The notes: generated from the sequence alone by a model not told the origin. Positions 41,710-51,393 are shown, numbered from the stretch's first letter. The stretch: DNA of 64,000 nucleotides from Candidatus Hydrogenedentota bacterium (GCA_045863335.1 BTVY01000010.1:14255-78254); one strand, 5' to 3'. Program-made: numbers and translations.

Positions 41710-42453
41710 TCACCCCTTCCGCGCGGTGATGAAATCGAAATGGTCGACAAATTCCAGCACCTCCACGTCCGCATACCGGGCTTCCATTTCGCCCAGACCA
41801 GCCGCCAATTCCTCTGGCGAGAACGACGACAGAAGTGTCATGTACTGGGACTCGACCATGGCGAAATACTTGACCTTTGGGATGGCGTGCGGGTATTCGA
41901 GACAGTCGTGCTCCACTTGGAAACCCGCGTCGCGCAAGAGTTCCTGCAATTCGTCGGGGCAGGCGTGCCAGTTCAAGGCTCGTTCCAGCGCCGCATCGAA
42001 CAAGGGATACCGGATCGTCGGCGGTACGTGCACCAGAAGAAACGCGCCGCCCTTCGGAAGGTTCGCGTAAATGTTCGCGAAGAGCTGCGCCTTGTCGTCC
42101 ACGTGGTGCACGGCTTCCTTCATGAACGCTTTCGTGTATCCGTTGTGGTTTGCCGAGTACGCAAGCGCGTCCATGCAGATGGGCGTCAACCCACAACCTT
42201 CCGGGATCGCAGCGAGCATTTCGGCGAAGGGGTCCACTGCTTGAACGGGTTGCTTCAATGAAACCTGCTTCAGGATGTCGACGGAGTACATGCCGGTGCC
42301 GCAAGCGAGGTCCAGCAGGACATCATCCGGCTGGAGTTCGAGTTTCTCGACCATCTTGGACGTCAATGCGCGCACGAATTCTGGCGAATAGTACAGGAAA
42401 TCGTCGTACTTGTCCGCGATCCGCGTGTAATGTTCACGCAACAGTTCACTCAT
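41710..42453 (-). CDS. Class I SAM-dependent methyltransferase, last gene of the ect-ehu cluster
   Basis: LLDLACGTG motif I, AVDPFAEML, KEAVHH, LPKGG; GGGAGG RBS, 26 bp after ehuA stop. Confidence 0.88.
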   Translation of the reverse strand: MSELLREHYTRIADKYDDFLYYSPEFVRALTSKMVEKLELQPDDVLLDLACGTGMYSVDILKQVSLKQPVQAVDPFAEMLAAIPEGCGLTPICMDALAYSANHNGYTKAFMKEAVHHVDDKAQLFANIYANLPKGGAFLLVHVPPTIRYPLFDAALERALNWHACPDELQELLRDAGFQVEHDCLEYPHAIPKVKYFAMVESQYMTLLSSFSPEELAAGLGEMEARYADVEVLEFVDHFDFITARKG

Positions 42454-42479
42454 CTAATCTCCCTCCCTGGCTGCCTGCT

Positions 42480-43256
42480 TCATGCTTCGAGAACCGCCTT
42501 CAAGAATTCTCGGGTCCGTTCTTCGGACGGTTCAGTGAAGATGTGATCGGGCGTGCCTTCTTCAACGATATTTCCGTGGTCGATGAAGACCACACGATCG
42601 GAGATCTCCTGCGCAAACCGCATCTCGTGGGTAACGAGGATCATCGTCGTGTCGTCCTGATGGGCCAGGTCGCGAAGCACTGTCAACACTTCGCCAACCA
42701 GCTCCGGGTCGAGGGCCGAAGTGACCTCGTCGAACAACATCACCGCCGGTTGCAGGGCCAGCGCGCGGGCAATCGCAACGCGCTGCTTCTGGCCTCCGGA
42801 CAGTTGCCCGGGATAGACGTCGACTTTGTCGGCGAGACCCACCTTGTCCAGGAGTTGCCGGGCGCGCTCTTCCGCTTCTGCCCTGGGCGTCTTTAAGACG
42901 TGCCGCGGCGCGACGGTGACGTTGTGGAGCACGGTCATATGGGGAAACAGGTTGAAGTGTTGAAAGACCATGCCCACCTTGCCCCGAACGTGACGAACGT
43001 GTTTGCGATTGGCAGGGACTGTCTTGCCGTTCTTCCGCATGTGCCACATCGAGTCGCCGTCGATTTCAATTTCGCCTGAGGTCGGTTTCTCCAGGGTCAT
43101 GATCAATCGCAATAAGGTCGATTTTCCCGAACCGCTCGGGCCTATGATGGATACCTTCTCTTTAGGCGCTACATCGAGATTCAGACCACGAATCACATGA
43201 ACGTCACCATAGGATTTGACGATATTCTTGAGGCGGACGATCGGTTGCTCGCTCAT
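42480..43256 (-). CDS. ehuA: Ectoine/hydroxyectoine ABC transporter ATP-binding protein
   Basis: [49 protein letters not shown]; cluster context. Confidence 0.9.
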
Positions 43257-43918
43257 GGGCGCGCTCCGTGGACGTGCAGCTTGCGTTCACTCCACCGGAT
43301 GAATGAAGCCGCCAGCAAGCTGCACACGAGGAAGAAGATCCCCGCCATCGTGAGGGGTTCCAGATAGCGGAAGGTCTCGGAGCCGATGATCTTGGATGAT
43401 TGCAGCAATTCAAGCACGGTGATCGCGGAGAGCATGGGCGTATCCTTGAACATGGCGACGAAATAGTTGCCGAGGGCCGGGATAATCGGCGGAATCGCCT
43501 GGGGCAGGATCACCTTGAACCACGTCTGACGCCGATTCAGGTTAAGCGCAGTAGCCGCTTCCCATTGACCCCGGTCGACGCCCTCGATGCCCGCTCGATA
43601 GACCTCTGACATGAACCCGCTGTAATGAATGCCGAGCGCGATGATGCCCGTGAGGAGCGGCGTCATGCTGATCCCGAATTCCGGCAAGACATAGAACAGG
43701 AAGTAGATCTGCACGAGCACCGGTGTGCTCCGAATGAATTCCACAATCGAGGCCACGGGCCAACAGATCGTACGGTGCTTGCTCCGGCGCGCCATGGCCC
43801 AGATCAGGCCCAGAACCGCCGCGAGCAGGGTGCCGATGATGGTCGCTTTCACGGTGACCACCAAACCGCGCAGCAGCTCGGGCATGATCTCCCAGGCAAA
43901 TTGCCAGTCGAAGTTCAA
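43253..43918 (-). CDS. ehuD: Ectoine/hydroxyectoine ABC transporter permease
   Basis: [47 protein letters not shown] start overlaps ehuC stop, GGAGG RBS. Confidence 0.9.
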
Positions 43919-44583
43919 TGGGATACCTCCAATTGCCGACCTCGTGTGAGGCGCCGTTCCAGCATGCGCACGAAGAACGTGAGGACGAGCGCAATGACGA
44001 AGTACATTACGAGCAGAAGTCCGAAGACTTCCGTGGTTCGCAAGGTTTCCGCGCGGAGCAATTGGCCGCGGAAGGTCAGATCGCTCAGCGTGATCAGCGA
44101 GACCAGCGCGGTGCTCTTCAACAACTCGATGAGCAGATTCCCCGCCGGTGGCAACATGGCGATGGCCGCCTGCGGCACGGTCACCAGCCACAAACTTTGC
44201 AACGGCGACAAGTTCAGCGCGGTGGATGCTTCGTGCTGTCCTTTGGGCACCGCCTGAATGGCGCCGCGCACGACCTCGCCGCCGTAGCTGCCGATATTGA
44301 GGCCGAGCACGAGGATCCCTGTCGTCATGGCGGAAAGGCTGACGCCAATGAGCGGCAGCGCGAAATAGAACCAGTACAACTGGACCAGCGCGGAGGTCCC
44401 GCGGAACGTTTCAATATACGCAATCGACATCCAGCGGATCGGCAACACTTTGCTGAGCCGGCCCAGACCCGACAGCCACGCCGCGACAAAGGCAACGCAA
44501 GCACCCCCCGCCGTAAGCCCCAGAGTGACCCAGAGTCCGCCCAGCAACGAAGGCAGTAAATCAAGTGGCGGCGGCACGTCCAC
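43915..44583 (-). CDS. ehuC: Ectoine/hydroxyectoine ABC transporter permease
   Basis: YIETFRGTSALVQL, GSYGGEVVRGAI, NLLIELLKSTALVSLITL. Confidence 0.9.
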   Translation of the reverse strand: MDVPPPLDLLPSLLGGLWVTLGLTAGGACVAFVAAWLSGLGRLSKVLPIRWMSIAYIETFRGTSALVQLYWFYFALPLIGVSLSAMTTGILVLGLNIGSYGGEVVRGAIQAVPKGQHEASTALNLSPLQSLWLVTVPQAAIAMLPPAGNLLIELLKSTALVSLITLSDLTFRGQLLRAETLRTTEVFGLLLVMYFVIALVLTFFVRMLERRLTRGRQLEVSH

Positions 44584-44595
44584 AACCTCCCCCCG

Positions 44596-49869: not shown

Positions 49870-49892
49870 GTCTGTGCATATTATGCACAGAC
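49870..49892. promoter_or_regulatory. Candidate enhancer (UAS) for the adjacent bEBP
   Basis: Perfect palindrome GTCTGTGCATA-T-TATGCACAGAC ~150 bp upstream of the -24 box. Confidence 0.65.
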
Positions 49893-50006
49893 AAAGACGA
49901 GGGGAGACGAAAGCCGCCCGGGGAATAGCTCACGCCAAGCCAGGTATTACCCCATGCCTAGGGCCGATTGCAGCAGAATGTCCTCCGGAATTCGCTCCTG
50001 GAGAGG

Positions 50007-50023
50007 TGTGCACATTGTGCGCA
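50007..50023. promoter_or_regulatory. Second candidate enhancer site
   Basis: TGTGCA-CATTG-TGCGCA, same TGTGCA-N5-TGCACA geometry as 49873-49889. Confidence 0.5.
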
Positions 50024-50028
50024 ATCCA

Positions 50029-51393
50029 TCATTGAATGTTGAATTTCTGGAGTTTGTTATAGAGCGCCCGCCGGCTGATCCCGAGCAGCTCGGCAGCTTG
50101 CTTCCGGCTGGGCGCCGCCGCCAACGCACGGATCACCATCTCCCGTTCGATCTCGGCAAGCGGCGTACCGACCGTAAAGGTTACTTTGGGCCGCGTCGCA
50201 CTCTTTTGGCTGAATCGGCCGGGCAAATGCTCCGGCAGCAGAACTTCCCCGGAAGAGATCAGCACGGCCCGTTGAATGACATTCTTCAACTCGCGCACGT
50301 TGCCGGGCCAGTCATGCTCCTCGAGCAGCGCTACGCACTCTGGATGGATCCCATGGACGTCCTTGTGAAAGGCTTCTCGAAATCGTTTCATGAACGCGTC
50401 GATCAGCAGCGGTATATCGCCCTGGCGCTCCCGAAGCGGCGGCATATGTACGCGGAACACGTCGAGCCGGTAAAGCAGATCTTCGCGGAACGCCCCTTGC
50501 CCCACCAAGTCCACTGGGTTCTCGTTGGTTGCCGCGACAATGCGCGCCTTGGTCGTCATCACCCGTTTTCCGCCGAGACGGGTAAACCGTTTGCTCTCCA
50601 GGATGCGCAACAGGCTGATCTGGACGCGCTCATCGATGGTCGAGATTTCATCCAGAAAAATGGTGCCCGAGTTCGCCTGTTCAAACTTCCCGGTGCGCCG
50701 ATCGAGCGCGCCGGTAAATGCGCCCTTCTCATGGCCGAAGAGCTCGCTCGCTACCAACTCTTGGGGCAGTGCGCCGAGATGGACGGGAACGTAGGGCCCT
50801 TCGCGCCTATCGCTCGCAAGATGGATCGCCTGCGCGGCGAGATCCTTGCCAGTACCCGTCTCCCCAAGTATCAGGACGGGGATGTCGCTGGCCGCCGCCT
50901 GGCTGATCTGGCGGAAGACTTCCTTCATGGGCTTCGATCGCCCGAGCAGAGGCTGGTCCAGGCGCACCGGTTCGCCGCCGTCGTTTATTGCGGCGTCTTC
51001 GAGCGCGCCCTGCTCTCGCAACGTCGACTCGACCAGCATACGCAATTCTTCATCTTCAATGGGGAACTTCGCGTAGCGAAACGAACCGGTGGTCATGGCT
51101 TTCATGGCGAATTTGATGTGCGCGGGATCGACGAGAAAGAGGACTTGCGACTTGGGACTTTTCCCGGAGATGGCTTCAAAAAGCTCTTTGCCTTCCACGC
51201 GGCCGGACTGGACCGCGGCGCTGGTCACGATTACTACGTCATACGCCGTATCCTCGAAATGGTCCAGAATCGTGTCCACGTCCCGTTCGCTCGCGACGGT
51301 CACCGGCCGGTCTGCGAATTGGCGTTCCAATCGCTTGGCGATTCCCGGCCGCTTCTCCACGACCATGATGTGTCGCTCTTTTTTAGCTGCCAT
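50029..51393 (-). CDS. sigma54-dependent enhancer-binding protein (NtrC-like) with atypical receiver domain
   Basis: GETGTGKD, ELFGHEKGAFTGA, FLDEI, FREDLLYRL, WPGNVRELKN, Fis-type HTH AAELLGISRRALYNKL; receiver beta3 reads YDVVIVTS (no phospho-Asp). Confidence 0.93.
   Translation of the reverse strand: MAAKKERHIMVVEKRPGIAKRLERQFADRPVTVASERDVDTILDHFEDTAYDVVIVTSAAVQSGRVEGKELFEAISGKSPKSQVLFLVDPAHIKFAMKAMTTGSFRYAKFPIEDEELRMLVESTLREQGALEDAAINDGGEPVRLDQPLLGRSKPMKEVFRQISQAAASDIPVLILGETGTGKDLAAQAIHLASDRREGPYVPVHLGALPQELVASELFGHEKGAFTGALDRRTGKFEQANSGTIFLDEISTIDERVQISLLRILESKRFTRLGGKRVMTTKARIVAATNENPVDLVGQGAFREDLLYRLDVFRVHMPPLRERQGDIPLLIDAFMKRFREAFHKDVHGIHPECVALLEEHDWPGNVRELKNVIQRAVLISSGEVLLPEHLPGRFSQKSATRPKVTFTVGTPLAEIEREMVIRALAAAPSRKQAAELLGISRRALYNKLQKFNIQ

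Follow-up and report, generated by a model that had tools for sequence, protein, structure and literature searches.

The 64-kb stretch of DNA analysed here (the window) comes from a Candidatus Hydrogenedentota bacterium (GCA_045863335.1, BTVY01000010.1:14255-78254) whose 6.75-Mb genome is assembled in 105 contigs and is 99.4% complete. Between positions 41710 and 51393, all long open reading frames (ORFs) that match a Pfam or NCBIfam family lie on the minus strand. In their order of reading they encode a bacterial enhancer-binding protein (bEBP) of the sigma-54-activating class, a stand-alone receiver-like protein, a four-cysteine zinc ribbon, the ectoine biosynthesis proteins EctABCD, the ectoine importer EhuBCDA and a methyltransferase (Table 1). 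A preliminary description of the window had listed these elements on one strand and in this order, and each was recovered on the minus strand at or very near the position it had been given. The same description proposed that the bEBP controls the whole synthesis-plus-uptake operon through a sigma-54 promoter, and it is this proposal that we evaluate below.

Table 1. Coordinates of genes and sequence elements at the ectoine locus, counted from the first nucleotide of the window.
Feature	Position	Strand	Evidence or remark
bEBP, 454 aa: degenerate receiver-like N-domain, AAA+ sigma-54 interaction domain, Fis-type helix-turn-helix (HTH)	50029..51393	-	Pfam
Putative enhancer site 1, TGCGCA-N5-TGCACA	50007..50023	.	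Begins 5 nt past the bEBP stop codon
Putative enhancer site 2, perfect TGTGCA-N5-TGCACA	49873..49889	.	About 186 nt upstream of the predicted start
-24/-12 sigma-54 promoter element, TGGCATCGGTATTGCA	49706..49721	-	Pattern match
Stand-alone pseudo-receiver, 134 aa, first operon gene	49248..49652	-	Response_reg 23.5 bits, below the 30.2 cut-off
Four-cysteine zinc-ribbon protein, 44 aa	49044..49178	-	CPHC...CPEC; zinc-ribbon Pfam matches sub-threshold
ectA, diaminobutyrate acetyltransferase	48445..49038	-	TIGR02406, 212 bits (cut-off 120.6)
ectB, diaminobutyrate-2-oxoglutarate transaminase	47120..48445	-	TIGR02407, 655.9 (cut-off 552.2)
ectC, ectoine synthase	46684..47118	-	PF06339, 206.5 bits; NF009806, 204.2 (cut-off 128)
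ectD, ectoine hydroxylase	45739..46671	-	TIGR02408, 403.5 (cut-off 336.5)
ehuB, ectoine/hydroxyectoine binding protein	44791..45735	-	TIGR02995, 295.5 (cut-off 190.9)
Inserted palindromic REP-like (repetitive extragenic palindrome) repeat, ehuB-ehuC spacer	44584..44790	.	Long inverted repeat, dispersed unit
ehuC, permease	43915..44583	-	TIGR03004, 270.2 (cut-off 196.95)
ehuD, permease	43253..43921	-	TIGR03003, 324.9 (cut-off 205.2)
ehuA, ATPase	42480..43256	-	TIGR03005, 394.1 (cut-off 345.4)
Class I S-adenosylmethionine (SAM) methyltransferase, 247 aa	41710..42453	-	Pfam Methyltransf_25/23/11; 26 nt 3' of ehuA

The identity of the cargo genes is clear. The EctA, EctB, EctC and EctD models all scored above their NCBIfam cut-offs and the genes stand in the order ectABCD, as in an ectoine/hydroxyectoine biosynthesis cluster, and the EctD translation contains FYWHSDFETWHAEDGMP, which agrees with the EctD signature given in the available text of PMC5924519. 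All four Ehu equivalog models likewise exceeded their cut-offs, identifying an EhuABCD ectoine ATP-binding cassette (ABC) importer. As had been described, the cluster lacks both an EctR gene and an aspartokinase gene: Pfam annotation of the ORFs in 41700-51600 revealed no MarR-family gene, which sets the cluster apart from the EctR/CosR type, and neither translation nor Pfam revealed an aspartokinase gene in the cluster. No ectoine catabolic gene was found in the cluster by tblastn and Pfam annotation. The genes are tightly spaced, with the ectA start 5 nt past the zinc-ribbon stop and all later genes overlapping or 1–26 nt apart except at the 207-nt spacer between ehuB and ehuC.

The bEBP has the architecture of an NtrC-family activator. 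Its central region matched PF00158 (Sigma54_activat) with 207.1 bits against a cut-off of 20.2 and PF25601 (AAA_lid_14) was also matched, while its C-terminus matched HTH_8 (PF02954) with 46.6 bits against a cut-off of 22. The translation contains HEKGAFTGA, a Walker A motif (GETGTGK) and a Walker B motif (FLDEI), all in columns that are invariant or nearly so in the family alignment. The GAFTGA loop is therefore intact, as the preliminary description had it, and the protein is predicted to activate a sigma-54 promoter in an ATP-dependent manner; rpoN is present in the host genome. The nearest solved chains are those of the NtrC family (4l4u, E 9e-80; 1ny5; 3dzd) and ZraR (1ojl), and no NCBIfam equivalog cut-off was reached. 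With NtrC1 and NtrC4 of Aquifex, ZraR and AtoC it shares the order of receiver-like domain, AAA+ domain with GAFTGA and Fis-type HTH, as well as palindromic enhancers upstream of a -24/-12 promoter. It differs from them in its N-terminal domain, which scored 27.7 bits against Response_reg, below the 30.2 cut-off, and in which the phospho-acceptor position is occupied by T (DVVIVTS). Of the 15 family sequences, 14 have another residue than Asp at this position (11 have T, two A and one S) and one has D. The bEBP here lacks the phospho-accepting Asp of an NtrC-type response regulator. Also in contrast to those systems, no histidine kinase gene was found in the locus. Because T replaces the phospho-accepting Asp, we infer that control of the bEBP is independent of phosphorylation.

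The 376-nt spacer between the bEBP gene and the receiver-like gene holds two palindromes and a promoter element. Palindromic TGTGCA-N5-TGCACA sites had been reported here; site 2 is an exact copy, and site 1, which differs by one base in its first half, is kept in two close relatives (G003 and G005, see below). The exact sequence occurs once in the 6.75-Mb genome, at site 2, and the relaxed pattern TG[TC]GCA-N5-TGC[AG]CA has three matches in the genome, two of which lie here, 134 bp apart. Since the pattern is almost unique to this locus, it suggests that the bEBP has essentially one target in the host genome. The promoter element, TGGCATCGGTATTGCA, has its GG and GC 10 nt apart and departs once from TGGCAC-N5-TTGCW, so that the -24/-12 promoter previously called canonical is present at 49706-49721 with a single departure from consensus; it is also conserved in relatives. 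Taking C49707 as position -12, transcription is predicted to start at about 49695 (49694 in the preliminary description), 43 nt upstream of the start codon (ATG) of the receiver-like gene. In 41300-51700, a simple scan for sigma-70-like promoters gave none, where 2.6 would be expected.

To place the locus among its relatives, we compared the window with 18 ect loci from 17 genomes. Genomes are denoted by G-numbers, which stand for species genomes of the host's group, with G000 being the window's own genome; all are placed in one phylum, for which 135 species genomes were available, and ectC was present in 17 of the 133 genomes of the order. Nine ect loci are of the bEBP type (G000, G003, G004, G005, G016, G021, G027, G038 and G116) and represent at least five genera and two families. 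Within the window's genus, G003 and G005 have kept everything that their contigs cover at 88–98% identity (the G003 contig ends in ectB), and G004 has kept the receiver-like gene, zinc ribbon, ectABCD-ehuBCDA and methyltransferase, with RecG upstream. In a different family, G027 has the bEBP, the receiver-like gene and ectABC, and G038 has the receiver-like gene and ectABC on a contig that begins just upstream, so that any bEBP gene would lie outside it. G016 carries the bEBP, a receiver-like gene of 28% identity and ectABCD-ehu, and G116 carries the bEBP, a 156-aa ORF and ectABCD-ehu. The G116 ORF, which lies between promoter and ectA, looks receiver-like by eye, but neither the family profile nor Pfam recognised it and it was not counted as a family member. 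In G021, the zinc-ribbon gene directly precedes ectABCD-ehuBCDA behind a sigma-54 element, and the family profile found no receiver-like gene upstream of the cluster. The preliminary description had named a lack of synteny between these upstream genes and ect clusters elsewhere as grounds for rejecting its proposal; instead, the upstream genes recur with ect clusters in relatives.

A -24/-12 element precedes the first gene in nine of nine bEBP-type loci. It reads TGGCATCGGTATTGC[A/G] in the window, G003 and G005, TGGCATCGTCTTTGCG in G004, TGGCATCAATATTGC[C/A] in G027 and G038, GGGCACGCTCCTTGCT in G016, TGGCACCAAACATGCG in G116 and TGGCACGGGTTTTGCC in G021. The DNA around the elements is otherwise unalignable among these loci and is AT-rich in G027 and G038. 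A palindrome within two mismatches of TGTGCA-N5-TGCACA lies upstream in seven of the eight bEBP-type loci tabulated, against a background of 0.013 per 500 bp, and rpoN was present in four of five other genomes with a bEBP-type cluster.

The other complete ect clusters carry a regulator gene of another type. In all seven (G002, G015, G092, G094, G095, G098 and G109), a MarR-family gene (56–65 bits) lies directly upstream of ectA, short inverted repeats accompany TATAAT-type sequences, and there is no -24/-12 element in the vicinity of ectA. Of the remaining loci, G028 lacks a nearby regulator of either kind, the G001 locus breaks off in ectB, and one G098 locus is a solitary ectC. In a maximum-likelihood tree of EctB from 16 clusters, built without the incomplete EctB sequences of G003 and G001 and without the lone ectC locus, one branch (100/100) separates the eight bEBP-type clusters from the eight others, a split to be read in the light that the groups are defined by the feature being counted and that the relatives are not independent. 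The split cuts across taxonomy, with G002, of the window's genus, falling with the EctR type and G027 and G038, of the other family, falling with the bEBP type. As far as these sequences go, this shows a long-standing linkage between regulator type and biosynthetic genes, and no more. We also observed both types within one genus, G000, G003, G004 and G005 being of the bEBP type and G001 and G002 falling on the MarR-type side, with EctB 57% identical between them. This points to replacement or independent acquisition at the level of whole clusters.

The first gene behind the promoter encodes a protein for which databases offer little. It falls short of the Pfam gathering score and has no NCBIfam match, and its relatives have no Pfam domain on record. 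An AlphaFold2 model (pLDDT, the predicted local distance difference test score, 83.8) has the (beta-alpha)5 fold of CheY with five strand-helix units. Foldseek matched this model to CheY4, the receiver of FleR and others (E about 2e-5, TM, i.e. template modelling score, 0.7–0.8), and a sequence search of solved structures gave a best E of about 1e-4. The acidic pair that binds Mg2+ after strand 1 is missing, being S-N here and G, S or T across the family alignment, and the acceptor position holds Asp in this protein (D58) and in 16 of 20 sequences, with E, P or I in the other four. What is invariant is a helix motif, D-x-LE-x-x-LNVRD, whose eight residues D65, L67, E68, L71, N72, V73, R74 and D75 lie at the start of or inside helix 66-76. 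Since this helix is away from the phospho-pocket, the conservation is the pattern expected of a protein-binding surface and not of a phosphorylation switch. Both this domain and the receiver-like domain of the bEBP thus look non-phosphorylatable. We considered whether the two are specific paralogues and rejected the idea, as the comparison of their family profiles was weak (E 0.0057, probability 6.5%) and indicates shared fold only. Out of 1.84 billion, 1375 representatives belong to the family at E<=0.001, 309 at 1e-10 and 27 at 1e-30; almost all are 100–140 aa long, and the only names given to the family are 'hypothetical' or generic. The zinc-ribbon gene that follows has homologues in the ect loci of G003, G004, G005 and G021, making five Hydrogenedentota loci with the window, and it is also a neighbour of the receiver-like gene in Phycisphaerae and Sedimentisphaerales loci and in several loci from metagenomes, without being universal.

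The conserved helix motif allowed the cassette to be followed beyond ectoine. Scanning 185,579 species genomes for LE[LF]VLNVRD yielded 19 loci, five of them the ect loci of Hydrogenedentota and 14 others from Planctomycetota (including Phycisphaerae, Sedimentisphaerales and Brocadiia), KSB1, Glassbacteria and one more Hydrogenedentota. None of these 14 contains ect genes. Ten have a bEBP gene of 44–56% identity upstream on the same strand, and the stretch from it to the receiver-like gene contains similar palindromes and a -24/-12 element; in L077 (Planctomycetota), a 17-mer identical to site 2 of the window follows the bEBP. Across the cassette loci tabulated, -24/-12 elements were found 44–138 nt before the first gene in 16 of 17. 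The cargo downstream in the six annotated non-ect loci (L071, L073, L074, L077, L081 and L084) combines proA (NF001221, 537 bits, cut-off 289) with genes for a GCS2-like carboxylate-amine ligase, for one or two methyltransferases of the MttB family, for a corrinoid protein resembling MtgC, for a SAM methyltransferase and for an ABC transporter of ProV/ProW type. With the metagenome loci L094-L133 included, this is the commonest cargo of the cassette. The annotated stretches of the cassette loci showed no proB; the GCS2-like ligase might provide activated glutamate to ProA. Read in this way, proA, the ligase and MttB would make up a proline or betaine pathway that is undescribed and controlled by sigma-54. 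Our literature search found no paper linking MttB to sigma-54.

Metagenomes added 41 loci, with the bEBP upstream on the same strand in 25, convergent in 4 and not found in 12, nine of which are cut less than 1 kb from the match. In the convergent loci (L105, L114, L119 and L120), the bEBP lies on the opposite strand, downstream of the receiver-like gene. As cargo, proA followed the receiver-like gene in 16 loci, MttB without proA in 4 and ect in one (L093), whose bEBP is identical to that of G027 over the stretch aligned for the tree. A sigma-54 element with at most one mismatch lay within 330 nt upstream of the receiver-like gene in 26 of 35 metagenome loci, compared to 1 of 21 control windows. 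In the phylum, the receiver-like gene is present once in each of 13 among 135 genomes; seven of these genes are linked to ect, and the other six genomes show no ectC. In the bEBP tree, seven of eight ect-linked bEBPs form one clade (88/86) inside the wider family, with that of G016 unresolved, and a single origin was recovered in 74% of bootstrap trees. The presence of the cassette in non-ect loci and the nesting of ect bEBPs within the family argue that a pre-existing cassette was joined to the ect genes. On this comparison, the locus is an existing bEBP-enhancer-promoter-pseudo-receiver cassette, found mostly before proline/betaine operons, that became coupled to ect in Hydrogenedentota. The cassette as such is not confined to ectoine and elsewhere mostly fronts proA/MttB/ProVW operons.

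Several features of the locus lie outside this cassette. The methyltransferase gene is probably the last gene of the operon. Its counterparts stand behind ehuA in G004, in G005 and, among EctR-type clusters, in G015, and the other clusters examined have none at this place; the gene was rightly placed after ehuA in the preliminary description and does not belong to the regulatory cassette, since an EctR-type cluster has one too. Its relatives (274 at E<=1e-20, 56–63% identity across many phyla) have generic names only, and their records include Myxococcota, Acidobacteriota, Chloroflexota, Planctomycetota, Nitrospirota-like and other bacteria. The ehuB-ehuC spacer, which the preliminary description does not mention, contains the repeat of Table 1, a 27-mer of which has 55 matches in the genome (<=3 mismatches). 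The spacer is missing in G005, where ehuC directly follows ehuB; the repeat could fold as a large hairpin within the operon transcript. An Rfam scan of 41000-52000 (E<=0.1) gave no match. The flanking genes are unrelated, with ComEC, DUF6298 and YdjM on one side and DUF1697 on the other. Words of 46684-51393 occur in many sludge and bioreactor metagenome runs, which is evidence of neither habitat nor expression; half of the sampled words are found in one run recorded as RNA-Seq, again not evidence of expression.

We consider it likely that a single regulatory unit comprises the genes between 51393 and 41710, with the ect-ehu operon under its own sigma-54 activator. The control of the whole synthesis-plus-uptake operon that had been proposed is supported by comparative evidence, namely the elements in nine of nine loci, the presence of rpoN, the tight gene spacing and the lack of a sigma-70-like site. 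The bEBP would bind the two TGTGCA-N5-TGCACA-type enhancers just downstream of its own gene and use ATP to open the sigma-54 promoter near 49707-49721. A single transcript from about 49695 would then carry the pseudo-receiver, zinc ribbon, ectABCD, ehuBCDA and methyltransferase genes. EctABCD would synthesize ectoine and hydroxyectoine, and EhuBCDA would serve high-affinity import or recapture, as the absence of catabolic genes from the cluster suggests. Phosphorylation would not act as the switch of the bEBP, which may instead be modulated through feedback by the pseudo-receiver, and perhaps also by the zinc ribbon, made from the same transcript. The input would be osmotic or compatible-solute status, to which the cargo points; a nitrogen or nutrient signal, which MttB and the corrinoid protein would suit, is less likely. 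More tentatively, and with well under even confidence, we propose that the bEBP with its dead receiver, the LEFVLNVRD pseudo-receiver and the zinc ribbon constitute an unrecognised phosphorylation-free switch for compatible-solute operons in multiple phyla, the trio sensing osmotic or solute status (e.g. ionic strength) and the small proteins closing a feedback loop.

A number of observations weigh against these proposals. The bEBP orthologue of G004 (82% identity) stands alone on the same contig, 163 kb from the operon, and that of G021 (55% identity) lies at the end of another contig, so that adjacency is not obligatory and the system, though its bEBP adjoins the operon in the window, is not self-contained in the strict sense first claimed for it. 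The G004 operon retains the -24/-12 element and one palindrome despite its distant bEBP and seems to offer a natural test of whether the activator works in trans. G016 has no palindrome within two mismatches, and rpoN was not found in its genome, which is 86% complete. No sigma-54 element was found in L079 or in 9 of the 35 metagenome loci, and several non-ect loci have no palindrome within two mismatches. The promoter pattern itself, with one match in the 64-kb window, is not significant alone, as 30 of 100 shuffles give at least one match and the whole genome holds 313 elements with at most one mismatch on both strands; the argument is therefore carried by the position and conservation of the element. 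This frequency and the unlinked bEBP of G004 would suit an explanation in which the motifs are chance matches or relics, the bEBP has another target and ect is constitutive or post-transcriptionally controlled. We regard that explanation as very improbable, given that the element stands at the same place in loci whose DNA is unalignable and of other base composition (G027 and G038 compared to the window), that the palindromes are almost unique in the genome, and that G004 has kept promoter and palindrome though its bEBP has moved. It is also improbable, if somewhat less so, that the sigma-54 promoter serves the small regulatory genes only and that ectABCD-ehuBCDA is transcribed from a separate promoter inside or after them. 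The 69-nt gap between the receiver-like and zinc-ribbon genes would offer a place for one, promoters within coding sequence are possible, and internal ect promoters have been proposed in other species, according to the available text of PMC5924519. However, the room before ectA is too small for another promoter, being 5 nt here and 24 nt in G027, where the receiver-like gene is the one that ends there, and in G021 the zinc ribbon directly precedes ectA. The lack of a sigma-70-like site throughout 41300-51700 and the agreement of EctB lineage with regulator type speak against it as well.

The signal, too, could be of another kind. With NtrC-like logic, the cassette might report nitrogen or nutrient status, the bEBP turning on the uptake and handling of nitrogen-rich solutes, namely ectoines here and betaines and proline elsewhere, in response to scarcity or availability of these compounds or of nitrogen. 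Sigma-54 regulons are often related to nitrogen, a point echoed in the available text of PMC5924519, which also places ectoine catabolism in R. pomeroyi under NtrYX. The commonest cargo elsewhere includes MttB-family methyltransferases and an MtgC-like corrinoid protein, suggesting betaine demethylation, and such cargo looks catabolic and would suit a nutrient signal no less than an osmotic one. Nevertheless, the locus holds the biosynthetic ectABCD with no catabolic gene found in the cluster, proA and ProV/ProW of the sister operons are classical osmoprotection functions, and the bEBP lacks the phosphorylatable Asp that NtrB/NtrC-type signalling requires. For these reasons we think a nitrogen signal unlikely.

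Control of a bEBP without phosphorylation has precedents. FleQ-FleN, FlbD-FliX, PspF-PspA and HrpS-HrpV-HrpG are bEBP systems with degenerate receivers or trans-acting modulators, and in the Psp and Hrp systems the modulator is encoded within the regulated operon and feeds back on the activator. Similarly, the receiver-like gene here is the first gene behind the sigma-54 promoter. The putative modulators, however, are unrelated to PspA, HrpV, FleN and FliX, being a CheY-fold pseudo-receiver and a 44-aa zinc ribbon. The bEBPs of Pirellula are reportedly treated in work by Studholme and Dixon from 2004, which might describe related proteins.

Among regulators of ectoine synthesis, the MarR-type EctR/CosR resembles the bEBP in being encoded by a dedicated gene upstream of ectA, and the two types share a phylum and even a genus (G002 and the window). 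The former is a repressor at a sigma-70-type promoter, whereas the latter is predicted to be an ATP-dependent activator at a sigma-54 promoter, and the EctB lineages are separate. A putative, unverified sigma-54 promoter has been placed before ectC in Halomonas elongata (Schwibbert et al. 2011, as discussed in PMC5924519). It is likewise a -24/-12-type element within an ect cluster, but it is internal, was proposed by sequence inspection only and has no named activator or enhancer, while the element here stands before the whole operon together with a bEBP and conserved enhancers. The available text of PMC5924519 does not support a sigma-54 ect promoter in Pseudomonas stutzeri. In the parts of PMC13342039 that we could consult, EctR adjoins all but four of 23 planctomycetal ect clusters and sigma-54 is not mentioned; the accessible portions of PMC8313267 name RpoN only as a possibility, taken from a 2018 review, and those of PMC2754498 and PMC9062515 add nothing relevant. 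Within the text available to us from the literature on ectoine, sigma-54/RpoN, compatible solutes, Planctomycetes and Hydrogenedentes, we came across no account of ect genes under the control of a bEBP or an enhancer. The view that no dedicated ect bEBP had been described is borne out to this extent, since what the literature yields is control of the EctR/CosR type and the unverified H. elongata promoter.

The regulatory variant is real and conserved, as judged from the genomes compared, and apparently undescribed. The cue for EctR/CosR is unresolved and the sigma-factor assignments of ect promoters are mostly unverified in the available text of PMC13342039 and PMC5924519. A dedicated ATP-dependent activator with defined enhancers, if true, would mean activation of an otherwise silent promoter as opposed to relief of repression, and would be useful for salt-independent or tightly switchable ectoine production while being easy to examine in a heterologous host. 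The phosphorylation-free trio, if true, would offer a molecular entry point to how osmotic stress becomes ect transcription. The wider cassette may matter more, for it exposes an unnamed pseudo-receiver family (at least 309 representative clusters at E<=1e-10) that, in the loci surveyed, almost always follows a sigma-54 promoter and a related bEBP before osmolyte operons in Hydrogenedentota, Planctomycetota, KSB1 and others.

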